Assembly: GCA_965213625.1 (NCBI GenBank)
Contig: CBDBZU010000004.1
Coordinates: 224,001 to 288,000, forward strand
DNA length: 64,000 nucleotides
Direction: 5' to 3'
Origin: a bacterium
GTDB lineage: Bacteria > UBA8248
Numbering within the stretch: the first letter of the stretch is position 1; each line of letters begins with the position of its first letter. This document shows positions 1-23,396 of the stretch, piece after piece. A model generated the notes under the pieces. That model saw nothing but the letters and a program-made list of their open reading frames with translations. It was not told the DNA's origin and ran no database searches. A program made the translations under genes and the position numbers.

Positions 1-3000
1 GCGGATGCCGAGATCGCGGGCGCGACGGGCGCGACCTACACGCTGACCGCTGCCGAGGAAGGCAAGACCATCAAGGTGCGGGCGACGTTCACCGACGACG
101 GCGGCAGGGAGGAGACGCTCGAGAGCGCCGCCACGGAGGCGGTCGCGGCGCTCTCGACCGTTCCGGTCTGGTCGGCGACCGTGACGGTCGGGGCGGACGG
201 GAACTTCCGGGGTTTATCCACAATGGCCAATCCGGATGTCGGATCGGCGTCCTTGGTCAGGTTCGATTACGGGTCGGAAACCACGCTCCGCTACACGGTT
301 CAGATCGTGGGCGCCAATACCGACGGCGTGATATTCAAGGTTCGGAGCCGGAACGATGACCTCTCCGGAATGTACCTGGAGTGGGCCGGCGAGACACTGC
401 CGTTGGCCTCCGCCGGCCGCCGGAGTGACGGGCGGTTCATCTGGGGCCAGAGCTGGCTCGCCGTCAACGCGCCTTCACTGAGCGCGTCCTCTTACGTCTC
501 GACGCTGCCGGAGAACGGCGCGGTCTCCGTATGCCTGCGGACCGTGGGACAGAGCTGTTCGGCGACCGTGGCGGAGAGCACCGCCAACGCGGCGCCGACG
601 GGCCTGCCGACGATTACGGGCGCGGCGCGTGTCGGCGAGACGCTGACGGCGTCGGAATCGGGCATCGCGGACGATGACGGACTGACGAACGCGAGTTTCA
701 CATGGCAGTGGATCGCGAACGACGGGACGGACGACACGGACATCGCGGATGCGACGGGCGCGACATACACGCTGACCGCCGCCGAGGAAGGCAAGACGAT
801 CAAGGTGCGGGCGACGTTCACCGACGATGGCGGAACGGAGGAGACGCTCGAGAGCGCCGTGACGGATGCGGTGGCCGCGGCGCTTCCCCGGGTTTCGATC
901 GCGGCGACCTCCTCGCCGGTGACGGAAGGCGCTGCGGCGGCGTTCACGCTGAGCCGGACGGGCGACGCGACGGCGGCGTTGACAGTAGCGGTGAGCGTGA
1001 GCGAGGCGGGCTCCGTGCTGTCGGGGACGCCGGCTTCCTCGGTGACCTTCGCGGCGGGGAACGCGACGGCCGCCCTCAGCCTGGCCACCGAGAACGACGA
1101 CGTGGACGAGGCGGACGCGAGGGTGACGGTTTCGGTGTCGTCGGGGACGGGCTACTCGGTGGCTCCGGACGCGGCCTCGGCCGGGGTGGATGTCTACGAC
1201 GACGACGCGGCGGCCTCTGGCGAGGCGACGGTCACGACGCTCTGGTCCACGACACTCGAATGGACGGACCTGAACGGCAATGTGATCGCCAACGCGGCGG
1301 ACTTCGCGGACGCGGGCTGGTCCGAGGACGGGGACGCCTTCAGGGTCTGGTACTTCGCCTACGATCCGTATGGCGGCGATCTGTGGTTGCGGATGAACTC
1401 TTCCCGGTCTGCCGGGGACATTCCCCGGCCGGGAGAGCTGACGCTGCGCATCGGCGACGAGACGGTGCAGGCCGGCGATGCGCTGTCGGCCTTCTCCGCG
1501 GGCAATATCGGGACCGTCAGCGGGGTCTGGCAGGACTGGGAGGAGGGCGACCGGGTTTCGGTGCGCCTGACGCGGACGGAAGCGGCGGAGACGACCGCCT
1601 CCCTGCCGGGGCTTTCCGTGGCGGACGCGCAAGTCAACGAGTCGTCGGGCGCGCCGCTCTCGTTCAGCGTGACGCTGGGTGCGGCGCAGACCTCTGCGGT
1701 CTCGGTGCGCTATGCGACCTCGGACGGCACGGCGACGGCGGGCGCGGACTATGAGGCGGTATCCGGAATACTACGCTTCGAGGCGGGCGAAACCTCGAAG
1801 ACGGTGTCGGTTCCGGTGATCAACGACGATCACGACGATGACGGCGAGACGATGACGCTCACGCTCTCTTCGCCGTTCGGAGCCGAGATTATCGACGGCG
1901 CGGCGACGGGGACGATCAACAACACCGACCCGATGCCGAAGGCGTGGCTCGCGCGCTTCGGGCGTGTGGCGGCGGAGCACGTAACCGGCGCGATAGGCGA
2001 GCGCCTGCGCGGCGGGGCGGGTACGCAGGTAACGCTGGCCGGGCAGGCCCTGGATTTCGGCGGGGATCCGCAACTGGTGAAAGACGAAGGCGGCGCGCTT
2101 CTGTTCGCGAAGAATGATTCGGCAGCCGCCCTCCCCACGCTGATGCGCGATTCGGGCGAGGACGTGGGGCTGCGCCCACTGGAGGAGGACGGCGAGACCT
2201 CGATTCCCGAACTCCTGCTCGCGAGTTCGTTCCACCTGGCGTCTGCGGGAGACCCCGGCTCGGACCGGCGCTGGTCCGTCTGGGGGCGGGGGGCGCGATC
2301 GAGCTTCGACGGCGCGGAAGGCGCTCTCACCCTCGAGGGCGAGGTGACGACGGCGACGCTGGGACTCGACATCGAGCAGAGCCGCTGGCTGCTCGGCGTG
2401 GCGCTCTCCCGGAGCGCGGGCGAGGGTTCCTACCTGGGCGACGCGACGTGCCGGAGCGGGTGCGACATAGAGAGCGCGCTCACGGGCGTATACCCCTATG
2501 CGCGCTACCGGGTGAGCGAGCGCCTTGAACTTTGGGGCGTCGTGGGCCACGGACAGGGGGACATGACGCTCAGCCCCGAGGGGATGGACGATATCGACAC
2601 CGACATCGAGATGAGCATGGCGGCGGCGGGGGCGCGCGGCGTTGTGCTGCCCGCCTCTGAAAAAGGAGACTTCGAGCTCGCCCTGCGGGCGGACCTGCTG
2701 GTGACGCGTACGAGTTCGGACGCGGTGTCGGAAGCGGGAACGGGCCGCCTGGCCGAGACGGAATCGGAGACGAGCCGCCTGCGGCTCCTGCTCGAGGGCT
2801 CGCGCAGCTTCAGCTTCGGTGAGCACGCCGTGCTCACGCCCTCGGTGGAGCTCGGCCTTCGCTACGACGGCGGCGATGCGGAAAGGGGCGCCGGCCTGGA
2901 ACTGGGCGGCGCGCTCCGCTATGCGGCCGGGAGTCTCACCGTGGAGGTGAGCGCGCGCGGTCTTCTCGCCCACAGCGAGAGCGATTACGAGGAATGGGGC

Positions 3001-3375
3001 GTGAGCGGTTCGGTGCGCTTGGCGCCGGGTACGGACGGGCGCGGCCTCTCGATGCGGCTGGGTTCGGGCTGGGGCGCGACCTCGGGAGGTGCGGAGCAGT
3101 TGTTCTCGCAGGCGAACGGGGCGTTCGGGGCGGGACGCTTCGACCCCGACGCGCGGCTGGACGCCGAGGTGGCTTACGGCCTCGACGCCCCGCGCGGTCT
3201 GCTGACGCCCTATACCGGCGTGGCGTACTCGGAGAATGCGGAGACGTGGCGCGCGGGCGCGCGCTGGAAGCTCGGCCCCGAATACGAGGTGAGCGTGGAA
3301 GCGAGCCTCAAAGAATCCCCAGGCGGGGAAGAACCCGAGAGCGGCTTGCTGCTTAGGGGTTCCAAGCGCTGGTAG
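1..3375 (+). CDS. Large autotransporter-like surface adhesin, 5'-truncated by window edge (Ig/cadherin-like repeats, Calx-beta domains, C-terminal beta-barrel)
   Basis: Frame is open from base 1 (ADAEIAGATGATYTLTAAEEGKTIKVRATF). Repeated module TGATYTLTAAEEGKTIKVRATFTDDGG; Calx-beta motif YATSDGTATAGADY...VPVINDDHDD; linker PKAWLARFGR followed by alternating beta strands ending in W. Confidence 0.85.
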   Translation, partial: ADAEIAGATGATYTLTAAEEGKTIKVRATFTDDGGREETLESAATEAVAALSTVPVWSATVTVGADGNFRGLSTMANPDVGSASLVRFDYGSETTLRYTVQIVGANTDGVIFKVRSRNDDLSGMYLEWAGETLPLASAGRRSDGRFIWGQSWLAVNAPSLSASSYVSTLPENGAVSVCLRTVGQSCSATVAESTANAAPTGLPTITGAARVGETLTASESGIADDDGLTNASFTWQWIANDGTDDTDIADATGATYTLTAAEEGKTIKVRATFTDDGGTEETLESAVTDAVAAALPRVSIAATSSPVTEGAAAAFTLSRTGDATAALTVAVSVSEAGSVLSGTPASSVTFAAGNATAALSLATENDDVDEADARVTVSVSSGTGYSVAPDAASAGVDVYDDDAAASGEATVTTLWSTTLEWTDLNGNVIANAADFADAGWSEDGDAFRVWYFAYDPYGGDLWLRMNSSRSAGDIPRPGELTLRIGDETVQAGDALSAFSAGNIGTVSGVWQDWEEGDRVSVRLTRTEAAETTASLPGLSVADAQVNESSGAPLSFSVTLGAAQTSAVSVRYATSDGTATAGADYEAVSGILRFEAGETSKTVSVPVINDDHDDDGETMTLTLSSPFGAEIIDGAATGTINNTDPMPKAWLARFGRVAAEHVTGAIGERLRGGAGTQVTLAGQALDFGGDPQLVKDEGGALLFAKNDSAAALPTLMRDSGEDVGLRPLEEDGETSIPELLLASSFHLASAGDPGSDRRWSVWGRGARSSFDGAEGALTLEGEVTTATLGLDIEQSRWLLGVALSRSAGEGSYLGDATCRSGCDIESALTGVYPYARYRVSERLELWGVVGHGQGDMTLSPEGMDDIDTDIEMSMAAAGARGVVLPASEKGDFELALRADLLVTRTSSDAVSEAGTGRLAETESETSRLRLLLEGSRSFSFGEHAVLTPSVELGLRYDGGDAERGAGLELGGALRYAAGSLTVEVSARGLLAHSESDYEEWGVSGSVRLAPGTDGRGLSMRLGSGWGATSGGAEQLFSQANGAFGAGRFDPDARLDAEVAYGLDAPRGLLTPYTGVAYSENAETWRAGARWKLGPEYEVSVEASLKESPGGEEPESGLLLRGSKRW

Positions 3376-3392
3376 GCGGATCCGACCAATTC

Positions 3393-3411
3393 GGGGTTGT
3401 TGAAAAACCCC
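3393..3411 (+). repeat. Solo copy of the 19-bp GGGGCTGTTGAAAAAGCCC hairpin/terminal-repeat family
   Basis: GGGGTTGTTGAAAAACCCC just after the autotransporter stop; related copies at 6233, 6437, 17528, 28973, 29137, 34625, 34906, 53779 and 53853. Confidence 0.7.
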
Positions 3412-3501
3412 CGTTAAGGGCAGCGAACGCTCCCTCCCCGGTCGCGTTCGGTCTTCCGTCTCCCGGAGGTTTTCGGCCGGGCCGTCCGGCACCTCGCCCG
3501 G

Positions 3502-6054
3502 CTATGCTTTCAGGCGGGCGCCCTCGGGGTCGAACATCTCAGAGGGCGAAGCCACGGACACGGGGAAGCGCTCGTTCATATATTGCACCTGCAGCTTGTT
3601 GCCGGCCACCGCCTGCTCGATCGGCAGATAGGCCAGCAGGAGGTATTTGCCGAGGGAGGGTCCCATACCGGCCGAGGTGACGAAGGACTCCCGTCCGCGG
3701 GCGTCGACGAGGCGCTCGCCCCCAAGCGTCAGGATCGGTTCGCTGCTGCCGGCGGGGAACCGCAACATCCCGGATTCGCCGGCGTGATCATCAACCGTCA
3801 GTGTACAAAGCTTCGCCGCCGGACCTTCGTCGCGCGCCTGCAGGTAGGCCCTCTTCCCGATGAATTCCGCGGCCTTCACGCGGGGCCGCGCCAGGCCCGC
3901 CTCCACCGGCGAGTACTCGGAGGTGAGATCGGCGCCCATGAGCGCGTATCCCTTTTCCAGGCGTCCCGTGGCGCCGTAGACGCCGATACCGACGGGCCGG
4001 GCGTCGAAGGTGCGGCCCGCCTCCCAAATCGCGTCCCACAGGCGCGCGCCGTGCGACGTGCGCGTGTAGATCTCCCATCCGCTCTCGCCCACGTAGGAAA
4101 TGCGCAGCATCGTCGTCGGCACGCCGTCGATAATCACCTCCTGCACCGTCCCGAACGGAAACGCTTCCTGTGTCAGCGGGGAGTCGGCAATCTCTGTGAG
4201 CAACGCGCGGGCATCCGGTCCCCATACCCCGATGGTGCAGAACCCCGACGATTGGTTCTCGAGCTGAACCGAGCCGTCCCCGGGAAGATGGCGGCGGAAC
4301 CAGACCTCGTCGCGCGCACCGTCGAAGACGCCGGTCACGATGCGGAACCGATCGTCCGCCAGCCTCTGGATGGTGAGGTCGGCGCGGATCCCGCCTTCCG
4401 GCGTCAGTAGCGGTGTGTAGATCGAGCTGCCCACTGGACGATCGCAGGGGTTGACCGCCAACCGCTCCAGGTAGGGCACGACGCCGGGGCCTGAGGCGTC
4501 GAAGATCTGAAAAGCGCTCAAATCCACGATCCCGACTTTCTCCCGCATGTGGAGATGCTCCGCGTTGATGATCGGTGACCACCAGCGGCGGTCCCATTCG
4601 TGCGGGCGATCCGAAATGCCGTAGCGGGCGACCAGGTCCTCGTTCGACGCGTACCACTGGGGCCGCTCCCAGCCGTGCGCTTCGTAGAATTCGGCGCCCA
4701 GGTCCGCGGTGCGATCGTGGAACGGCGCCCGGTGCATGCCGCGTTCGGACGCCCACTGCTCACGCGGATGCACGATTCCGTAAGTCTTGTTGAAGTGTTC
4801 GCGGCATCGCTGCCTGATGTGCTGCTCGGTTCGCTCGTGCGGGTAGAACCGCGTGATGTCCGAGCCGTGCGGATCGCACAGACGCGGATAGCCGTGGGTG
4901 ATCCACTCGGCGATCAGGCGCGCGGTGCCGGGGCCCTCCTTGATCCAGACGGCGGCCGCCGACCAGAGCTTCTCCACCTCGGCTGTCTCGCCCAGCACCT
5001 GCATCGCATCCGGGGTCAGGGAGAGCAGTCCGTTCACCGAATACTGCATTTCGGAACCGGCGAGCAACTCGCCCATAATCGCCCGGGCGTGCTCGAGCTG
5101 CGGCGCAAAGTCATCGCCGGTGAAGGGCAGCTCGGTGGGTGTCCGCTCCGCTTCCGCATTGGAAGGAATGTCATCGGGATGCACCAGGATGGGGCGGTGG
5201 GCGTACGAGCCGATCTCCATCGCCCCGTGACTCTGCCGCTCGTACATGAAGGTGTCCATGTCGCGGACGATCGGATAGTCGATCTCGTTTCCCGTCCTTT
5301 GCAGCAGGTCGATTGAGCCCATGTCGGCCATCTGGTGCACCGCCGGGGTGAGCGGGATGGTCGCTCCGGCGAGCGCGGCGACCCTCGGGCTCCAGACGCC
5401 GCACGCGATCACCACCTGTTCCACCTCAATCGCGCCGCGCGTAGTCGCCACGGCCCGGATGCGCGGACGGCCGAACGGCGGGCGTGATACCTCAAGCCCC
5501 GTGACCTCGGTGCCCTCCAGCACGGTCAACACGCCCTTGGCCTGCGCCCCCTCACGCATGATGGCGCCCGCCCGGACCGAGTCGACCACAGAGGCGCTCG
5601 GCGTGTAGAAGCCGCCCAGGATCACGTCACCGTTCACGAACGGCGCCCTGGCGACCACCTCGGCGGGATTAAGCAGTTCGGCCTCGATGCCCCAGCACAG
5701 GGCCGAGGTCATCCGCCGGCGCAACTCTTCCATGCGGGCATCCGTGCGCGCCACTTCGATGCCACCGCAAGTGGTGTTGACGCCGAGCGCGGCGTACTGG
5801 CGCTGGCTCTCCAGCGTCAGCATCGTGATTTCGCGATTGTGATCGGTCGGGAATATGAAGTTCGACGCGTGGCCGGTCGAACCACCTGGGTTGGGCAGCG
5901 GCCCCTTTTCTATCAGCAGCAGGTCCTCCCACCCAAGCTCCGCCAGGTGTCCCACCAGGCAATTGCCGACGATTCCGGCGCCGATCACGGCAATCGTCGC
6001 CCGCGCCGGCGGCGGCGAAGCGCTCTCGGATGGGCTGGTGATGGCGTCTTTCAG
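3502..6054 (-). CDS. FAD-dependent N-demethylase fused to a GcvT/THF-binding domain (dimethylglycine oxidase/dehydrogenase family)
   Basis: AVIGAGIVG Rossmann motif; GGSTGHA covalent-FAD His motif; GWERPQWY; C-terminal GcvT motifs (RISYVGESGWEIY, RLEKGY). Start extended from GTG 5988 to an in-frame CTG at 6054 behind GGGGGA. Confidence 0.9.
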   Translation of the reverse strand: MKDAITSPSESASPPPARATIAVIGAGIVGNCLVGHLAELGWEDLLLIEKGPLPNPGGSTGHASNFIFPTDHNREITMLTLESQRQYAALGVNTTCGGIEVARTDARMEELRRRMTSALCWGIEAELLNPAEVVARAPFVNGDVILGGFYTPSASVVDSVRAGAIMREGAQAKGVLTVLEGTEVTGLEVSRPPFGRPRIRAVATTRGAIEVEQVVIACGVWSPRVAALAGATIPLTPAVHQMADMGSIDLLQRTGNEIDYPIVRDMDTFMYERQSHGAMEIGSYAHRPILVHPDDIPSNAEAERTPTELPFTGDDFAPQLEHARAIMGELLAGSEMQYSVNGLLSLTPDAMQVLGETAEVEKLWSAAAVWIKEGPGTARLIAEWITHGYPRLCDPHGSDITRFYPHERTEQHIRQRCREHFNKTYGIVHPREQWASERGMHRAPFHDRTADLGAEFYEAHGWERPQWYASNEDLVARYGISDRPHEWDRRWWSPIINAEHLHMREKVGIVDLSAFQIFDASGPGVVPYLERLAVNPCDRPVGSSIYTPLLTPEGGIRADLTIQRLADDRFRIVTGVFDGARDEVWFRRHLPGDGSVQLENQSSGFCTIGVWGPDARALLTEIADSPLTQEAFPFGTVQEVIIDGVPTTMLRISYVGESGWEIYTRTSHGARLWDAIWEAGRTFDARPVGIGVYGATGRLEKGYALMGADLTSEYSPVEAGLARPRVKAAEFIGKRAYLQARDEGPAAKLCTLTVDDHAGESGMLRFPAGSSEPILTLGGERLVDARGRESFVTSAGMGPSLGKYLLLAYLPIEQAVAGNKLQVQYMNERFPVSVASPSEMFDPEGARLKA

Positions 6055-14223: not shown

Positions 14224-15213
14224 TTACACCTCGACGACGATCTTGCCCATCTGGGTGTTCGATTCCATGTACTTGTACGCGCCTACGATATCGTCGAGAG
14301 AGAACGTCTTGGCGATGATGGGCTTGAACGCGCTCGATTCCAGGCCGTCATAGATGAATTGCCTCGCCTTCTCTCTTAATTCTTCGTTTCTCGATATTTC
14401 CATGATCGTATAGCCCCTGTATGTAAGTCCCTTTCTGATTGACGCGTACAGGGGCAAAACAGGCGCATCGGGCGAGAGGAGGCCATAGAGGAAAATCGCG
14501 CCCTGGTAGGCGGCCGCATCGGCGAGTTTCGGCAGAAAAGATCCGGCGACGGGGTCGAAAATGACGTCAACGCCTGCGCCTCCCGTGATATCCATCACCG
14601 ACTCCGCCAATTCCTCCTCGTCCGTCACAACGACGCGATCAGCACCAATGTTCAGGAGAAAATCCTTCTTGCCCGCTCCGCGCGTCGTGGCGATGGCCCG
14701 CGCGCCCAATGATTTCACGATCTGGATCGCCGCGACTCCGACGCTGCTGCTCGCCGCCGTGAGCAGGACGTTGTCGCCCTTCTTCACCCGCCCGTATTCG
14801 ACGATGGCGCCGTATGCGGTCATGTAAGCCATCCAGATGGCCGCGGCCTTCACGGACGTCAGGTGGGCAGGATAGCGGGCGGCGGCGAACGCCGGCACGA
14901 CAGCCTGCTCGCCGCACACTCCGTGCTCCACCATCGAAAAACACGGAATCGTGCTCACGCGGTCCCCGACCACAAGGTCCTCCACGCCCGGACCCACGGC
15001 GTCTATCGCCCCGCAAGCCTCGTAGCCAATGCGGGAGGGAAACACGGGTTTGTCGTGGTAGCGCCCCTCGCGGAAAAGAATCTCCGCCCGGTTGATCCCG
15101 AGCGCTTCCACGACGATGCGCACCTCGCCCTCCGCAGGCTCGAGCTCAGGAACCTCCGCCACGCGGAGCACGTCCGCGCCGCCCAATTCGTCAAAAAGAA
15201 CTGCTTTCGGCAT
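14224..15213 (-). CDS. MDR-superfamily NADPH:quinone oxidoreductase-like protein, copy 2
   Basis: GINRAE, PSRIGYEACG, TAASSSVG, GKIVV; tandem paralog of 15292-16281. Confidence 0.9.
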   Translation of the reverse strand: MPKAVLFDELGGADVLRVAEVPELEPAEGEVRIVVEALGINRAEILFREGRYHDKPVFPSRIGYEACGAIDAVGPGVEDLVVGDRVSTIPCFSMVEHGVCGEQAVVPAFAAARYPAHLTSVKAAAIWMAYMTAYGAIVEYGRVKKGDNVLLTAASSSVGVAAIQIVKSLGARAIATTRGAGKKDFLLNIGADRVVVTDEEELAESVMDITGGAGVDVIFDPVAGSFLPKLADAAAYQGAIFLYGLLSPDAPVLPLYASIRKGLTYRGYTIMEISRNEELREKARQFIYDGLESSAFKPIIAKTFSLDDIVGAYKYMESNTQMGKIVVEV

Positions 15214-15291: not shown

Positions 15292-16281
15292 TTACGCCTC
15301 GACGACGATTTTGCCCATCTGGGCGTTCGATTCCATATATTTATGCGCCCCCACCATGTCGTCGAGCGGGAACGTCTTGGCGATGATGGGCTTGAGCGCG
15401 CCCGATTCCAGGCCGTCGTAGATGAATTTCTTCCCCCGCTCTCTTTTTTCCCGAAACTTCGTGATCTCCATGATCGTATAGCATCTGAACTTCAGGCCTT
15501 TCTTGAGAGCCGGAAGCAGGGGTATCACCGCATCCTCGGGCGAGAGGCGGCCATACAGGAAAATCGCGCCCTGGTAGGCGGCCGCTTCGGCTAGTTTCGG
15601 CAAAGACGACCCGACGACGGGGTCGAAGGTGACGTCGGCGCCCGAGCCTCCCGTAATATCCATCACCGATTCAGCCAGATCCTCCTCATCCGTCACGACC
15701 ACGTGGTCCGCGCCCGCGTTCAGGAGGAAATCCTTCTTGCCCGCCCCGCGCGTCGTGGCGATTACGCGTGCGCCGACAGATTTCGCGATCTGAATCGCCG
15801 CGATGCCGACGCTGCTGCTCGCCGCCGTGAGCAGGGCGGTATCGCCCTCCTTTATTCCTCCGAATTCGACGAGCGCTCCGTATGCGGTGAAATACGGCAT
15901 CCAGATGGCCGCGCCCTCAACAGGCGTCAGGTTGTCCGGGTAGCGGGCGGCTGCGAACGCGGGCACGACCGCCTGCTCGCCGCACACCCCGTGCTCCACC
16001 ATCGAGAAACAAGGAATCGTGCTCACGCGGTCCCCGACCGCCAGGTCCTCCACGCCCGGGCCCACGGCGTCTACCGCTCCGCAAGCCTCATAACCGATGC
16101 GGGAGGGGAACTGGGGTTTGTCGTGGTAGCGACCTTCGCGGAACATAATCTCGGCCCGGTTGATCCCGAGCGCTTCCACGGCGATACGCACCTCGCCCTC
16201 CCCGGGCTCGAGGTCAGGCACTTCCGCCACGCGGAGCACGTCCGCGCCTCCTAACTCGTCAAATAGAATCGCTTTCGGCAT
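15292..16281 (-). CDS. MDR-superfamily NADPH:quinone oxidoreductase-like protein, copy 1
   Basis: Same motifs as 14224-15213; start at MPKAILF by homology to the paralog. Confidence 0.9.
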   Translation of the reverse strand: MPKAILFDELGGADVLRVAEVPDLEPGEGEVRIAVEALGINRAEIMFREGRYHDKPQFPSRIGYEACGAVDAVGPGVEDLAVGDRVSTIPCFSMVEHGVCGEQAVVPAFAAARYPDNLTPVEGAAIWMPYFTAYGALVEFGGIKEGDTALLTAASSSVGIAAIQIAKSVGARVIATTRGAGKKDFLLNAGADHVVVTDEEDLAESVMDITGGSGADVTFDPVVGSSLPKLAEAAAYQGAIFLYGRLSPEDAVIPLLPALKKGLKFRCYTIMEITKFREKRERGKKFIYDGLESGALKPIIAKTFPLDDMVGAHKYMESNAQMGKIVVEA

Positions 16282-16305
16282 GTCTTCAATCTCCCCACAT
16301 CTCAT

Positions 16306-18173: not shown

Positions 18174-19496
18174 ATGGAATGCACGCCGGACCCGGCCATC
18201 CCGCCGGGGCGCGGGAAACCGGGCAAGGAGATGACCCCCGAGGAAGCGAACGGCTTCAAGCTCCTGGGCCACTGCGATTTCGGCGGACGCAACAAGGGCG
18301 ACGTCATGCAGCTTCTCGTGAAGGACGACTTCATACTCTGCGGCCACGTGGGCATGTCCGGCGCGGGCACGAGCGTCATCGACGCCTCCAATCCCCGGAA
18401 GCCGAAAGTCGTGAACCAGATTCCCGCCCCGCGCAACACGCACAACAACAAGCTCCAGATCGTCGGCGACATCATGGTCGTCAACAACGAGCAGTTCGGC
18501 GGACGCGGCCCCGATTTCGAGCCCTTCAAGGCGGGCATCGACATCTACGACGTCTCGAACCTGCCCGAACTCCGCCCGCTGGGCTATTTCCATACAGGAG
18601 GTCGCGGGGTGCACCGGTTCTGGTTCGGCGACGGCCGCTACGCGTTCCTTACGGCGGGGGACGATGATTACATCGATCAGTTCCTGAAAATCATCGATCT
18701 CAAGAACCCCACCCGGCCCAAGGAGGTGGGCCGCTGGGCAATGCCGGGCATGCGGAACGACGAGGAGCGCGACTGGTACCAGATGGGCCAGTTCCGCTTC
18801 AAGAAAAACAGACAGGGCGAATACATCCCCTTGGGCGGCGAGGCGCCCGAGGGCGTGCAGAAAAAACGCGCCTGCGTACACATGTCCATGAACGTCGGCG
18901 ATAGATGCTACGGCGCGTGGTGGGATTCTGGCTTCATCATCCTGGACATCGCCGACATCACGAACCCGACCCTCATCAGCCACACCCAGTGGCCGCCCGA
19001 GGAGAGTTCGGCCACGCACTCCGTGCTGCCCCTGCCGGAGCGGAACCTCTGCATCGTTTCGGATGAATGCACGGCGGAGGACATGGAGGATATCGAAAAG
19101 CAAATCCGCGTGATGGACATATCGGATGAGAAAAACCCGAAGGTGCTCTCCACCTTCCCGCACCCCGAGGGCGATTACGCTGAGCGCGGCGGACGCTCCG
19201 GCCCGCACAACCTGCACGAGAACCGCCCGGATTCGCTGATCGACGAATCCAGAGTTTACATGACCTGGTTCAACGGCGGCCTGCGCGTGTTCGACATCGA
19301 AGACCCGCTGAATCCCAGAGAAGTCGCCCACTACGTGCCCGAAACGCCCAGGCGCGACCCCATCCGCCCCCTGTGGGGGAGAGACTACGAACTCCTGCAA
19401 GTCCAGGTGGACGACGTCTACATGGCCGCCGACGACAGGGCCTACATCAGCGAACGCCTGGGCGCCGGCGTGTGGATACTGGAGTCCGATTTTTAG
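18174..19496 (+). CDS. LVIVD-repeat beta-propeller protein
   Basis: GAGGAG SD and TATAAT at 18138; repeated IDASNP, IYDVSN, IIDLKNP, ILDIADITNP, VMDISDEKNP, VFDIEDPLNP; conserved His motifs (THNNK, GVHR, ATHS, GPHN). Confidence 0.85.
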   Translation: MECTPDPAIPPGRGKPGKEMTPEEANGFKLLGHCDFGGRNKGDVMQLLVKDDFILCGHVGMSGAGTSVIDASNPRKPKVVNQIPAPRNTHNNKLQIVGDIMVVNNEQFGGRGPDFEPFKAGIDIYDVSNLPELRPLGYFHTGGRGVHRFWFGDGRYAFLTAGDDDYIDQFLKIIDLKNPTRPKEVGRWAMPGMRNDEERDWYQMGQFRFKKNRQGEYIPLGGEAPEGVQKKRACVHMSMNVGDRCYGAWWDSGFIILDIADITNPTLISHTQWPPEESSATHSVLPLPERNLCIVSDECTAEDMEDIEKQIRVMDISDEKNPKVLSTFPHPEGDYAERGGRSGPHNLHENRPDSLIDESRVYMTWFNGGLRVFDIEDPLNPREVAHYVPETPRRDPIRPLWGRDYELLQVQVDDVYMAADDRAYISERLGAGVWILESDF

Positions 19497-19632
19497 GGAG
19501 GTGTTTTTTCATTATTTCCAATCACATCAGGTGTTGAAACATTTTTATTTGTAGAGTATCTTGATGCTCTGAATTTCGCCCAAATTTTATCTCATCTGTA
19601 CTAGACCAGTACACATTAGACAGAAAAATTCT

Positions 19633-21423
19633 ATGACTTTCTCGAATCGATTTAATATTGAAGACAATGAACTTCTGCGCATTCCACAGCGCGAAGGGTG
19701 GGTACATATCCGTGATTATTATGGGACGGGTGAGGCCACTAGATTTGCCGGAGTCGTCCTTCCTGTCGGTTGTGGAAAATCCGGGCTCATCGCCATTACT
19801 CCGTATGCGCTTGATGCTCACCGAGTTCTAGTCATTGCGCCTGGAACACGAATTCGTGATCAACTTGTTGATGATATGAAATCAAGTAGCGCTAATAACT
19901 TTTACGAGAAATGCGCTGTGCTCGAAATTGATGACGATTTCCCCGAAACTGTTGTTGTCGCAAGTAGGACGGTCAATCACGATGATCTGCAAAACTCGGA
20001 GATTGTCGTTTCGAATATCCAGCAAATTGCAGGTGAAGAAAACCGTTGGCTGGATGAATTTGGAGATGACTTTTTCGATTTAATTCTAGTTGACGAAGGC
20101 CACCACAACACAGCAGCGTCTTGGCAACAGGTCTTTGATCGCTTTCCTAACGCCCAAGTGATAAATTTCAGTGCGACTCCCACACGTGCTGACGGACAAC
20201 TTATGGAAGGGGCTGTGATTTACTCCTTCCCAGTAGTTCGTGCAATTCAAGCCGGATATGTGAAACGTGTAGCAGCCAAGATGTTGAGGCCTTCCGAGTT
20301 GACTTATGTTGATCAGAGTTCGGGTGAAGAGTGCACAATCGAGCTGGAAGATGTGATTAGACTTGGCCAAGAGCATGCCGAGTTCCGCCGCGGAATCGTG
20401 ATGTCAGATGAATCGCTGTCATCCATTGTGGACTGTTCTATTGGTGAGTTGCGGCGTTTACGTGAGGAAACTGAGGAACAACGCCTTAAAATCATTGCAT
20501 CAGCCTTGAATATCGATCATTGCATCCAAATTGTAGAAGCATTCCGTGCTCGGGGTATGCGAGCAGATTATGTCCATTCCCGAGTAGGACAGAACGCGAA
20601 TCAGCTTGTACTCCAAAAGCTCGCGAATCATGAGTTAGATGTAATCGTACAAGCACGAATGCTCGGTGAGGGCTTTGATCATAAGTATCTAGCTGTGGCA
20701 ATGGTAGGCAGCATCTATGCCAATCTCTCGCCGTTCGTTCAGTTTGTCGGTCGGATCATGCGCGTAGTCGAACAGAATATGCCATATAGCCAGCTTAATC
20801 GGGGAGTTGTTGTCTTCCATGCAGGTGCAAACGTCGCGCAACGCTGGAACGACTTCCGATCCTTCAGTGATGCAGATCAGGCATATTTCGCGGACCTTCT
20901 ACCTGAGGCCGAAAATATCGACTTCGACCCCACAGGCCCTACTGAACGTGAGCCTGGCGGCATTGGAAATATCCAACCTATAGATGTGGTCTCTGAAACG
21001 GATGTACTAGCAACGGACATGGATCCTATTGGAGATCCAGAAATTATTGCTTTATTACAACAACTAGCTGATCGGGGGATTACTCCAGACCAAGCAGCAG
21101 CTGGTATTCGCCGTATCCGACCGACCCGACAAGATAAGAGACTGGCGCGTCGCAATTCATTGAGCCAACGAATTCAGAATGAATCAGGCGGCATCCTAGC
21201 TCGATGTGGAATCAATCCTGGGGGACAAACACTGGACCCACGACGACAGAAGGCGAACTACCAATGGGTCGTGAGTGAATTGAACAAACGAGTGAATGCG
21301 AGCGTAGCCCAAGAAAATGCCAATCGTGAGAATTTTACTCTAGAACAGTTAGAAACTGCCCACGATGCTTTGGAAGCCCAAGTTGCAATCCTCGAAGAGG
21401 AGTTGCGAGATGCCAAAACCTAA
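19633..21423 (+). CDS. SF2 DEAD/DEAH helicase (ResIII-like) without an evident nuclease domain
   Basis: Q-motif LRIPQRE, Walker A LPVGCGKS, DEGHH, SATP, MLGEGFD, QFVGRIMR; visibly AT-richer than the flanks. Confidence 0.88.
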   Translation: MTFSNRFNIEDNELLRIPQREGWVHIRDYYGTGEATRFAGVVLPVGCGKSGLIAITPYALDAHRVLVIAPGTRIRDQLVDDMKSSSANNFYEKCAVLEIDDDFPETVVVASRTVNHDDLQNSEIVVSNIQQIAGEENRWLDEFGDDFFDLILVDEGHHNTAASWQQVFDRFPNAQVINFSATPTRADGQLMEGAVIYSFPVVRAIQAGYVKRVAAKMLRPSELTYVDQSSGEECTIELEDVIRLGQEHAEFRRGIVMSDESLSSIVDCSIGELRRLREETEEQRLKIIASALNIDHCIQIVEAFRARGMRADYVHSRVGQNANQLVLQKLANHELDVIVQARMLGEGFDHKYLAVAMVGSIYANLSPFVQFVGRIMRVVEQNMPYSQLNRGVVVFHAGANVAQRWNDFRSFSDADQAYFADLLPEAENIDFDPTGPTEREPGGIGNIQPIDVVSETDVLATDMDPIGDPEIIALLQQLADRGITPDQAAAGIRRIRPTRQDKRLARRNSLSQRIQNESGGILARCGINPGGQTLDPRRQKANYQWVVSELNKRVNASVAQENANRENFTLEQLETAHDALEAQVAILEEELRDAKT

Positions 21424-21631
21424 GTCCTTACTTAAGAATGTAAAAATCACTAAAGCAAAACGGGCACATAACTGTAAACATAATGCACGACATCGTATTG
21501 AGAAAGATGATTTGCGGCTGACCGTCAAAGAGGGCCAAAATAAGCAGAATTACTGTTTAGTCTGCGGTTCTAAATTCGTGGACACGGCGATAAACTTTCT
21601 AAGCGAGTTACGTACTTCTCTACCGGATTAG
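21410..21631 (+). CDS. Small basic zinc-finger protein (PARP-type ZnF-like), coupled to the helicase
   Basis: GAGGAG SD; ATG overlaps the helicase 3' end; AKRAHNCKHNARHRIEKDDLRL...YCLVC. Confidence 0.7.
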   Translation: MPKPKSLLKNVKITKAKRAHNCKHNARHRIEKDDLRLTVKEGQNKQNYCLVCGSKFVDTAINFLSELRTSLPD

Positions 21632-21671
21632 TTAATTTTCTGTCTAATACCTAAGCAGTTGATATCCCCCA

Positions 21672-21848
21672 CTAACCCAGCTTCTCACCGAAAAACGCGA
21701 GCGTTTTCTCCCAGGAATCCTCGCTCTGTTCGGCACGGAAGCGCTCGGGGTTGTCCTCCCACTGAAAGGTGTGGCCCGCGCCGTCGTAGCGGTGGAAGAC
21801 GTATTCGACGCCAGCGCCCTTGAGCGCCGCCTCGTAGTCGCCCACGTC
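21672..21848 (-). pseudogene. Diverged duplicate of the 3' end of the dienelactone hydrolase gene
   Basis: Near-identical to 22677-22853 (cccagcttctcaccgaaaaacgcgagcg...cgcctcgtagtcg); own TAG stop; no 5' part. Confidence 0.9.
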
Positions 21849-21912: not shown

Positions 21913-22641
21913 ATGACGGACATGATCACCGACCCCATACAGACACGCCGGGCTTTGTTGACGTGGCAGCGCCCTCTGGAGCAGCCCGGTTCCCGCGACA
22001 GGTTCGCGGTGGCCGAGTTGGCGCAATGCGAAGAAGGCGTGGCGTTTTCGTATTTGGATGAGGCGCGCCTCGCGCCTGCCCTGGAAACCGGATTCGGCGG
22101 CTATCCCGGCCTCGCGCTGGGCGATCCGCACGAGGCGGACACCGCGCTCGACGTACTGGCGCGACGACTCCCGCCCCGGGGTCGACCCGACTTCCATGAC
22201 TTCATGGAGACGTTCGGCCTCTCGCCGCAAGCCGATTTCTCCTACCTCAGCCTTCTGGCCTATACAGGCGCCCGCGTGACCAGTGATAGCTTCGGGGTCA
22301 CCGAGACTTTCGAAGGTTTCGACCGTCCTTTCCGCTACGTTTTCGACGTCTCGGGTTACAGGCATTATCGAAACGATGCGCTCGACTTGGAAGTTGACGA
22401 GCCCGTGGTTTTCCAACACGACCCGACCAACGAGTATGACCCTCATGCGGTAGCGGTGGCTCGCAAGAGCGGCGTTCGCCTGGGCTATATCAACCGCCTG
22501 CAAGCTCAAACGGTTAGTGAGTGGCTTGAGCACGGAAGCGTAGACGCCCGCGTATTCAGGCTCGGCGGCCGTTCGGTATATCCACGGCTATTCGTCATGG
22601 CCGATATCGAACCGGCTTTACAAGGGGTTCATGCGACCTGA
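21913..22641 (+). CDS. HIRAN-domain protein with HipA-N-like N-terminal region
   Basis: FDVSGYRHY, HDPTNEYDPHAVAV, LGYINR (HIRAN); N-terminal LTWQ...FSY...RRLPPRGRPDF...LLAYTGA. Confidence 0.8.
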   Translation: MTDMITDPIQTRRALLTWQRPLEQPGSRDRFAVAELAQCEEGVAFSYLDEARLAPALETGFGGYPGLALGDPHEADTALDVLARRLPPRGRPDFHDFMETFGLSPQADFSYLSLLAYTGARVTSDSFGVTETFEGFDRPFRYVFDVSGYRHYRNDALDLEVDEPVVFQHDPTNEYDPHAVAVARKSGVRLGYINRLQAQTVSEWLEHGSVDARVFRLGGRSVYPRLFVMADIEPALQGVHAT

Positions 22642-22676
22642 GAATCGCTGCGGCGTAATCTCCTTCAAACCTCCCC

Positions 22677-23396
22677 TCACCCCAGCTTCTCACCGAAAAA
22701 CGCGAGCGTTTTCTCCCAGGAATCCTCGCTCTGTTCGGCGCGGAAGCGCTCGGGGTTGTCCTCCCACTGAAAGGCGTGGCCGGCGCCGTCGTAGCGGTGG
22801 AAAACATATTCCGCGCCCGCGCTTTTGAGCGCCGCCTCGTAGTCGTCCACGTCCTCCGGCGAGGGGTTCTGGTCCTCGTTTCCGAATATGCCAATGACCG
22901 GGCACGCGATGTTTCCCGTCAGCTCGATGGCGGGCGGGTTTCCTGCGCCGCGCACTTCCTTCACGCCGCCGCCGTAGAAGACCGCGCACGCGGCGTAGCG
23001 CGAATCCGTGCACGCGGCAAGCCAGCTCACGCGCCCGCCCCAGCAGTGCCCGACGACGCCGATCCGGCCCGCGTCCACGCTCTCAATAGTCGCCAGGGCG
23101 TCGAAGCCCGCTTTCAAGTCCTGCGCCGTCTGCGCGTCGTTGAACTCATCGCGCTTTATCTGCATGTCGTCACTCTTGGACCACCAGTGGTAGAGAAACG
23201 GAACCGACACCGCGTAGCCGTTCGCCCGGAAGCGCTCCGCCGATTTCACCGTGAAGGGGTCGCCCTCGATTCCCCCGTGCCCCGGAATGTGCTGGCAGAG
23301 CACCAGCCCAGGATGCGGCCCGTCGCCCGCAGGCTCGTACAGGAAAATCTCCATCTCGCTGCCCTGGACTTCAGTCATCTCGATTCGGTAGCTCAT
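22677..23396 (-). CDS. Dienelactone hydrolase family protein
   Basis: GVVGHCWGG nucleophile elbow, FGNEDQNP, YDGAGHAF. Confidence 0.92.
   Translation of the reverse strand: MSYRIEMTEVQGSEMEIFLYEPAGDGPHPGLVLCQHIPGHGGIEGDPFTVKSAERFRANGYAVSVPFLYHWWSKSDDMQIKRDEFNDAQTAQDLKAGFDALATIESVDAGRIGVVGHCWGGRVSWLAACTDSRYAACAVFYGGGVKEVRGAGNPPAIELTGNIACPVIGIFGNEDQNPSPEDVDDYEAALKSAGAEYVFHRYDGAGHAFQWEDNPERFRAEQSEDSWEKTLAFFGEKLG

Follow-up and report, generated by a model that had tools for sequence, protein, structure and literature searches.

We analyzed a 64,000-nucleotide stretch of a bacterial genome (UBA8248; assembly GCA_965213625.1, contig CBDBZU010000004.1, positions 224,001 to 288,000), hereafter the window, and found that an AT-rich cassette at 19497-21660 encodes a RadD/XPB-like superfamily 2 (SF2) DNA motor followed by a small protein, which we conclude belongs to the PARP/Lig3 zinc-finger superfamily as a divergent bacterial branch whose set of ligands is altered. 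The two genes are invariably paired, and they form a mobile, self-contained unit that is under purifying selection and carries neither an effector domain nor another conserved partner. The role that we favor, with a probability of roughly 0.45, is immunity against invading DNA triggered by DNA breaks. More tentatively, we propose the specific form of this role in which a stand-alone PARP1/Lig3-type finger would direct a RadD-like motor onto nicked or ended invading DNA, giving a prokaryotic immune module that is free of nucleases.

Layout and composition of the cassette

The cassette consists of three features.

19497-19632, + strand: AT-rich leader, with a weak sigma-70-like site (19534-19562) and a palindrome (19597-19613)
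19633-21423, + strand: predicted SF2 helicase/translocase of the RadD/XPB/HsdR-like (ResIII) kind, 596 amino acids (aa), from its open reading frame (ORF), Pfam, motifs and Foldseek
21410-21631, + strand: PARP1/DNA-ligase-III-type zinc finger, 73 aa, basic, with a C-terminal helix, from alignment, profile, AlphaFold2 (AF2) and Foldseek

A sequence-only reading of this DNA had described an abrupt compositional shift at about 19500-21660, and measurement bore this out. The G+C content of 19497-21660 is 46.0%, against 61.8% in the 10 kb to the left and 61.4% in the 10 kb to the right; a 500-nt profile falls from 0.62 to 0.43-0.51 across 19500-21750 before recovering, and at 1-kb resolution the cassette has the lowest G+C of the window. 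At third codon positions the helicase gene (0.42) and the small ORF (0.41) resemble each other, with the surrounding genes for an LVIVD-repeat protein, a dienelactone hydrolase (DLH) and a HIRAN-domain protein at 0.79, 0.84 and 0.70, respectively. Read from its first ATG the small ORF spans 21365-21631 (88 aa); we place its true start at ATG 21410, which is preceded by GAGGAG, because comparison with relatives puts the start there. This conserved form has 73 residues and an isoelectric point of 9.9, begins 14 nt before the end of the helicase gene, and is predicted from this overlap to be translationally coupled to it. The same reading had reported a basic 73-aa ORF overlapping the helicase, and both the ORF and the peptide quoted from it were found as written.

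A RadD/XPB-like motor

The motifs of the helicase are intact, with GCGKS at residue 46, DEGH at 154, SAT at 180 and QFVGRIMR at 370, and the presence of Walker A, DExH, SAT and QxxGRxxR elements predicts an SF2 helicase of the ResIII/DExH type. Pfam agreed, returning ResIII (8e-25), Helicase_C (3.3e-7) and DEAD (2.9e-6), and the Pfam scan placed no nuclease or methylase domain in the protein. The AF2 model was of moderate quality, with a predicted local distance difference test (pLDDT) score of 64.5; its second RecA domain came out poorly, but the first one and the C-terminal helices were modeled well. The last 100 residues form confident helices in this model, and the C-terminal region is conserved. 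Pfam, the motifs and the model together support the original description of a helicase with intact motifs, a helical C-terminal tail and no nuclease or methylase domain.

Several comparisons place this motor among known proteins. A Foldseek search with the model returned Escherichia coli RadD first (7r7j; 7e-12, 20% identity) and archaeal XPB next, and a profile of the helicase family run against the PDB matched an HsdR fragment and XPBII. Among NCBIfam models the EcoAI R subunit and RadD matched the window helicase, both far under cut-off; the RadD model NF053632 gave 27.4 bits for the window helicase and 79.4 bits (1.7e-22) for a member of a distant clade of the family, short of the equivalog cut-off of 720. 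PADLOC-DB v2.0.0 yielded only partial matches to the helicase core (PbeA at 2.8e-12, type I, III and IV restriction enzymes, and DpdF). Collectively, these comparisons identify the protein as a RadD/XPB-like SF2 DNA motor.

A divergent PARP-type zinc finger

PARP-type zinc fingers are the textbook DNA-break sensors of eukaryotes, and their canonical zinc ligands are arranged as C-x2-C...H-x2-C. To describe the bacterial protein we aligned 68 finger partners of the helicase, 35 from the clade of the window and 33 from the distant clade. Three cysteines (C22, C49 and C52) are invariant across all 68 sequences; H28, R36 and L37 are present in 35/35 members of the window clade and H20 in 33/35, and 32 of the 33 distant-clade members have a second cysteine three residues past the first. 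From these counts, the zinc site is predicted to be Cys-His-Cys-Cys in the window clade (C22, H28 or H20, C49, C52) and Cys4 in the distant clade. The arrangement departs from the canonical one, being C-x5-H...C-x2-C in the window clade and C-x2-C...C-x2-C in the distant clade; the number of ligands is still four, but their kind and spacing differ.

The zf-PARP model of Pfam (PF00645) did not match the window protein at E<=1. A profile built from the 68-sequence alignment and run against the PDB placed the PARP1 F1F2 structures first (2n8a at 1.1e-5, 4av1 at 1.3e-5); individual fingers of PARP1 and that of Lig3 followed at 0.02-0.05 (Lig3 at 0.04). The AF2 model of the finger was confident (pLDDT 91.5) and shows three strands and a long C-terminal helix. 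When this model was submitted to Foldseek, the first 21 rows comprised 20 PARP1 Zn1/Zn2 fingers and one Lig3 finger (E 0.09-0.94, probability 0.51-1.00, 19-25% identity, query-normalized template-modeling score 0.38-0.60), and the titles of these PDB entries describe PARP1/Lig3 fingers bound to DNA breaks. In a language-model atlas the near neighbors were unnamed clusters and the nearest named family, at 0.80, was a Lig3-like zf-PARP family, which we treat as a lead only.

Searching 1.84 billion protein representatives with a hidden Markov model (HMM) of the alignment recovered 623 family members at E<=1e-3. Among the best 150 matches, 149 are 61-115 aa long, and the single long one (694 aa, E 1.1e-12) is matched over five stretches and carries five zf-PARP domains by Pfam (9.9e-88); it is a multi-finger protein and not a fusion of the finger to a helicase. 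A word-index search, which provides weak evidence on this point, likewise returned no longer finger-bearing proteins, and PADLOC-DB v2.0.0 gave 0 matches to the small protein. The profile match to PARP1 F1F2, the modeled fold and the five-zf-PARP protein together uphold the earlier suggestion that the small ORF encodes a PARP-type finger.

The N-terminal tail of the finger is also conserved in both clades, following the pattern M-P/A-R/K-x-K/R-S-L-I, in which Ser6 is shared by 66 of the 68 sequences, and in the distant clade it continues as S-L-G-R-P, which is AT-hook-like. The tail may serve to dock the finger onto the helicase or to contact the minor groove.

Conservation of the gene pair

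More than 3369 relatives of the helicase were found, and the 119 matches listed besides the window's own protein are 64-81% identical to it. They come from Prosthecochloris, Bacteroidales, Hahella, Paracoccus, Xanthobacter, Bradyrhizobium, Syntrophobacteraceae, Terriglobales and others, covering the phyla Chlorobiota, Bacteroidota, Pseudomonadota and Acidobacteriota. An alignment-based scan for related loci in a collection of 185,579 species, with one genome for each, gave 541 stretches encoding a relative, each confirmed by tblastn, and 79 loci were fetched for analysis of the pair. A second such scan, centered on an alphaproteobacterial helicase, returned no further close-clade alphaproteobacterial loci.

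In 75 of the 79 loci the finger HMM matched a single ORF downstream of the helicase on its strand, and in the other four the contig stops within or at the helicase gene; the finger therefore follows the helicase in all 75 testable loci, which come from many phyla and take in both the distant clade, with helicases 33-41% identical to that of the window, and a contig of the archaeon Methanolobus. With our choice of start codons, 64 of 67 loci have a finger gene that begins before the helicase gene ends; the overlap measures 14 nt in 26 loci and 8 nt in 23. Constancy of the small ORF beside helicase homologs was one of the tests that the sequence-only reading had set for its proposal of a sensor-plus-helicase module, and the pair passed it. 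Its statement that no nuclease or methylase partner is evident also held: an all-against-all clustering of 946 neighboring ORFs revealed no third conserved gene, with no other gene present in more than four loci.

Decayed copies of both genes were observed. The helicases of two loci (L018 and L024) are split by a frameshift or stop, and at a third locus (L081, finger at 5431-5721) the zinc-binding cysteines of the finger are replaced by serine. A structure prediction of the helicase and finger as a complex scored 0.00; it was run without controls and is uninformative either way.

Carriage on plasmids

The helicase is present in 58 plasmid records and in 0 of 50,697 phage genomes. Near-identical copies occur on about ten enterobacterial plasmids of 5.9-6.2 kb. 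One of these, a mobilizable Klebsiella plasmid of 5907 bp (L090), encodes RelE, NadS, Rep, helicase, finger and MobC on a single strand, with an overlap between the helicase gene and the rep stop codon. On this plasmid RelE, NadS, Rep, helicase and finger form one overlapping string (920-4649), and the pair makes up a third of the molecule. A megablast of the Klebsiella copy against 5,426 complete E. coli genomes returned no match. Other plasmids carry the pair beside DpnII-type restriction-modification genes, RelE or HipA, or DUF1778/GNAT genes. The module is self-contained and horizontally mobile, a variable cargo of defense and toxin-antitoxin hotspots, integrative elements and small plasmids; its mobility is supported by the low G+C content of the cassette and the 64-81% identity of relatives in different phyla as well as by the plasmid records.

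This carriage raises the alternative that the pair helps a plasmid or other mobile element to replicate or establish itself, with the finger finding a nick or primer-template junction at an origin or oriT and the helicase opening DNA for the replication of the element or protecting the incoming strand. The plasmid records and the rep-overlapping gene of the Klebsiella plasmid favor this explanation, as do the integrases, Tn3/IS66/Mu transposases, ArdC, type IV coupling protein and TraI-like genes found near other copies. However, most copies, that of the window included, adjoin no rep, relaxase or integrase gene, no neighbor is conserved across the family, and on the remaining plasmids that we inspected the pair lies apart from rep, next to restriction-modification or toxin-antitoxin genes. 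The pair is also absent from the phage genomes, although phages often carry replication helicases, and we regard a helper function of this kind as improbable.

Genomic neighborhood and defense genes

We annotated the neighborhood of 24 loci with Pfam (135 of 150 ORFs; the remainder were duplicates in L008/L009 and ORFs of L028/L029). Neighbors included the mobile-element genes just named together with a serine recombinase, the toxin-antitoxin genes AbiE, PIN and RelE, and restriction-type genes. Neighbors within 4.5 kb were then compared with PADLOC models at E<=1e-30 in the same 24 loci, with four duplicate ORFs of L008/L009 set aside, and in 25 further loci, mostly of the distant clade. As controls we used 26 regions of 9 kb lying 50-200 kb from the pair in 13 long-contig genomes, all of the close clade.

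PADLOC-positive neighbors were found in 11 of the 24 loci and in 11 of the 25 further loci. In the 24 loci the specific matches were AbiEi, IetA and IetS directly upstream of the pair (two loci), Dazbog directly downstream, QatA, PDC-S02, a group of AbiEii, PD-T4-10_B and PDC-S68, a PLD-helicase with a DUF1156 methylase, and a type II restriction-modification pair; two generic matches were a kinase and the UvrA-like 'mad3'. The further loci contributed AbiE, a type I S subunit together with a type I methylase, several type II methylases, PDC-M41B, a dGTPase, a Pycsar cyclase, a pAgo with an Aga nuclease, and one generic RecD-like match. The controls were positive in 5 of 26 regions, through BREX, a restriction-modification/Ssp-like group, two ABC-ATPase 'mad3' matches and a kinase. 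Over all loci the difference from controls amounted to 22/49 versus 5/26 for any match (Fisher one-sided p 0.024) and 19/49 versus 2/26 for specific families (one-sided p 0.003), and within the 13 matched genomes to 6/13 versus 5/26 (one-sided p 0.085) and 6/13 versus 2/26 (one-sided p 0.010), respectively. The defense-gene enrichment for which the sequence-only reading had proposed a test is therefore present, in a small sample with controls drawn from the close clade. That reading had also expected no PADLOC hit if the pair were new, in agreement with the partial core matches of the helicase and the absence of matches for the finger.

At three loci, from Brevundimonas, Cereibacter and Stakelama, a complete IetA-IetS system lies upstream of the helicase on the same strand (L007/L008/L009, 2274-5973; PADLOC 2e-155 and 2e-295) and ends 28 nt before the helicase start at 6001. 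IetA, IetS, helicase and finger seem to move there as a four-gene block.

A further alternative is that the association with defense genes reflects hitch-hiking in mobile islands, with the pair having some other role, such as acting against the defenses of the host or on RNA. The contexts of the pair are variable, and the helicase core alone cannot tell a DNA substrate from an RNA one, both of which would allow for this. Against it, the finger has the fold of a DNA-break binder, which to our knowledge is the function of every characterized member of the PARP1/Lig3 finger fold, and ResIII/RadD/XPB-like cores act on DNA; absence from phage genomes would also be ill-suited to a phage-borne counter-defense gene. 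We therefore consider a hitch-hiking pair with an unrelated role to be quite unlikely.

The host site is a variable hotspot

The cassette of the window lies between the LVIVD-repeat gene, which ends at 19496, and the DLH gene (22677-23396, - strand). Three further features occupy the right side of this site.

21659-21848, - strand: fragment duplicating the 3' end of the DLH gene, copy 1 of a 190-nt direct repeat, at the right edge of the cassette
21913-22641, + strand: HIRAN-domain protein, 242 aa, homolog of PDC-M03B (Pfam HIRAN 3.7e-9; PADLOC PDC-M03B 1e-29)
22664-22853, - strand: copy 2 of the 190-nt direct repeat, inside the intact DLH gene (Pfam DLH 8.7e-33)

The two repeat copies are 90% identical to each other, and copy 1 matches the 3' ends of the DLH genes in congeners at 92-93% identity. 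This duplication is the sole long repeat at the site; no repeats of the kind left by an insertion flank the cassette at 19497 or 21660.

Congeners whose LVIVD gene is 92-93% identical bear other low-G+C cargo at the same LVIVD/DLH junction. Five carry a SocA/Panacea antitoxin with a partner gene, in one case along with an Mrr_N fragment that matches a type IV restriction model, and two carry a complete PDC-M03 pair in which a HipA-like M03A gene (6e-33) overlaps a HIRAN-domain M03B gene (3e-32). From these differing cargos at one junction we observe that the site acts as a hotspot for defense and toxin-antitoxin genes, with the helicase pair as one of its alternative cargos. In the window the position of M03A is taken by the helicase cassette and the 190-nt duplicate of the hydrolase 3' end, leaving the HIRAN gene without a kinase, and PDLC04345, one of nine M03A models, matched nothing genome-wide in the host. 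M03B is thus present on its own, and membership in PDC-M03, which takes both genes, does not apply. We considered the HIRAN protein as a third component of the helicase module and rejected it, since the other loci have no HIRAN homolog and the congeners have HIRAN and kinase without the helicase. The HIRAN gene is an orphan PDC-M03B, and a recombination between two alleles of the hotspot is recorded here. The sequence-only reading had missed this hotspot, in which the cassette replaced the PDC-M03 kinase gene and left the HIRAN gene orphaned.

Elsewhere in the window, two tandem paralogs at 14224-15213 and 15292-16305 (both - strand) encode zinc-type alcohol dehydrogenase/quinone reductase-like proteins of 329 and 337 aa, whose near-identical N-terminal halves mark a local gene duplication.

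Proposed role and regulation

We put immunity first because of the hotspot, the neighboring genes, the patchy distribution, the pseudogenized copies and the carriage on plasmids. In this proposal the finger would recognize discontinuities in DNA (nicks, ends, or junctions of single-strand and double-strand DNA), as its eukaryotic relatives do, and would load or license the helicase at those sites, from which the helicase would translocate or unwind. Linear ends, nicks or rolling-circle intermediates of invading DNA could serve as the trigger. Having no nuclease, the motor might act by stripping replication or packaging proteins, or by exposing single-stranded DNA to host nucleases.

Several observations weigh against a break-triggered defense. 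An effector domain, be it a nuclease, toxin or NADase, is absent, which is unusual for helicase-based defense, and the closest relatives of both proteins (RadD, XPB, PARP1 and Lig3) are DNA-repair factors. On the roughly ten 5.9-kb plasmids, the helicase gene that overlaps rep could serve plasmid replication or maintenance. The finger assignment has counter-evidence of its own: the zf-PARP model of Pfam matches 2 of the 68 family members, at best with E 0.0092 and under its 39.3-bit cut-off, and VIA-align, a search independent of Foldseek, gives PARP1 Zn2 (Z 5.0) and a RING finger (Z 5.4) about equal rank, a weak signal for a 73-residue model. In the neighborhood comparison the control sample is small, the any-match p is 0.085 in the matched subset, and the split into specific and generic families is a matter of our judgment. 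Finally, a perfect GTTC-N7-GTTC repeat lies upstream of the helicase start in 3 of 12 alphaproteobacterial loci.

This repeat bears on an alternative in which the pair is a mobile cassette for repair or tolerance of DNA damage, with the finger marking nicks, gaps and broken forks and the RadD-like motor remodeling them, for instance by branch migration or clearing of proteins, in favor of host or element survival and with expression raised by the SOS response in some hosts. The three boxes lie at -56 (L011), -59 (L018) and -46 (L019) from the helicase start and belong to a Xanthobacter, a Methylocystis and an uncultured alphaproteobacterium; the background of this pattern is 39 occurrences in the 844 kb of the loci as a whole, which gives a Poisson probability of 6e-6 to 2e-4 for at least three. 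In the genomes concerned the same direct repeat, on the other strand, stands upstream of lexA in 3/3 and of recA in 2/3 and nowhere else in the 2.4-3.8-kb lexA/recA loci (L208-L213). GTTC-N7-GTTC agrees with the alphaproteobacterial SOS box. Because their GTTC box recurs at lexA and recA, some copies of the pair are probably induced by DNA damage. In the Methylocystis genome (L209) recA itself and the helicase pair share a contig and are only about 11 kb apart, probably by coincidence.

Beyond the SOS-like boxes, repair is favored by the RadD and XPB structural matches of the helicase and the RadD-model score of its distant-clade member, by a finger fold that PARP1 and Lig3 use for nick sensing, and by the lack of a toxic or nuclease effector. 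The distribution points the other way: 541 stretches in 185,579 species is sparse and patchy, copies of both genes have become pseudogenes, and the pair sits in variable hotspots beside defense and toxin-antitoxin genes more often than controls do, all of which fits accessory conflict genes better. The box, moreover, is confined to three loci whose promoters may share ancestry; the nine other alphaproteobacterial loci have no GTTC-N7-GTTC even with one mismatch, nor does the copy in the window. A repair cassette is a serious alternative, if the less likely one, and immunity remains the role that we favor.

The leader of the window's own copy offers no comparable signal. A promoter scan found one site (19534-19562) where shuffled sequences gave 3.5, no more than chance. 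The palindrome TGTACT-N5-AGTACA that the sequence-only reading had pointed out does exist at 19597-19613 and is the sole TGTAC-N7-GTACA in the 4.15-Mb genome; it is neither conserved, being absent upstream of 23 homologous helicase genes, nor statistically notable. We assign it no function because a 6-nt inverted repeat within about 135 nt is within chance. As a candidate LexA box of the host it was rejected, being absent upstream of lexA and recA, unique in the genome and unconserved in homologs.

Significance and comparison with known systems

Whatever its role, the pair ties a compact bacterial family of PARP-like fingers obligately to a helicase, and it bears on the origin of the PARP1/Lig3 finger. 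The family comprises 623 clusters at 50% identity, reaches many phyla and also occurs on plasmids. If the pair is an immune system, it would combine a new type of sensor, a PARP-like finger that reads DNA discontinuities, with the logic of a nuclease-less motor, both of them unmatched among named systems. It would then be the first system in prokaryotes to rely on the DNA-break sensor of eukaryotic PARP1 and ligase III, occurring in bacteria and in at least one archaeon (Methanolobus, metagenome-assembled), and some lineages would additionally have wired it to the SOS response; such a system would point to conflict systems of prokaryotes as the place where the PARP1/Lig3 sensor originated or at least became diverse. 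If it is instead a repair module, a RadD-like motor would be guidable by a separate nick-sensor protein, and mobile elements would be spreading such a function. At 2 kb, self-contained and present on natural 5.9-kb plasmids, the module is easily testable.

PADLOC, Pfam and NCBIfam do not name the pair, and full-text literature searches, as far as titles, the openings of abstracts and passages go, turned up nothing on a helicase-finger pair. Among helicase-based defense systems that sense DNA damage or ends, Hachiman (HamAB) is similar in being a two-gene module with an SF2 helicase, in its occurrence in defense islands, and in its proposed trigger, the loss of DNA integrity. It differs in that the pair has no HamA-type nuclease or other effector and no PADLOC Ham match, and here the sensor would be the separate finger.

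RadD (YejH; 7r7j, 8h5y, 6jde) and archaeal XPB (5tnu, 6p4f) have the same ResIII-type SF2 core of two RecA domains and a similar size (about 590 aa), with Foldseek values between 7e-12 and 3e-9 at 17-20% identity over about 370 columns. In RadD, too, the motor is combined with an element that binds zinc and with a C-terminal domain. Here, by contrast, a PARP-type protein of its own forms the zinc module, and the pair is sporadic and mobile rather than a core gene; neither the finger profile run against the PDB nor the Foldseek search with the finger model matched RadD chains. The PARP1 Zn1/Zn2 and Lig3 fingers share with the small protein their fold and a similar signature, A-K/G-R..C-K/R...I.KG..RL...YC..C. 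In contrast to PARP1, the bacterial finger has a shorter version of the loop that carries the base-stacking residue, and, in contrast to both PARP1 and Lig3, it stands alone, unfused to an enzyme.

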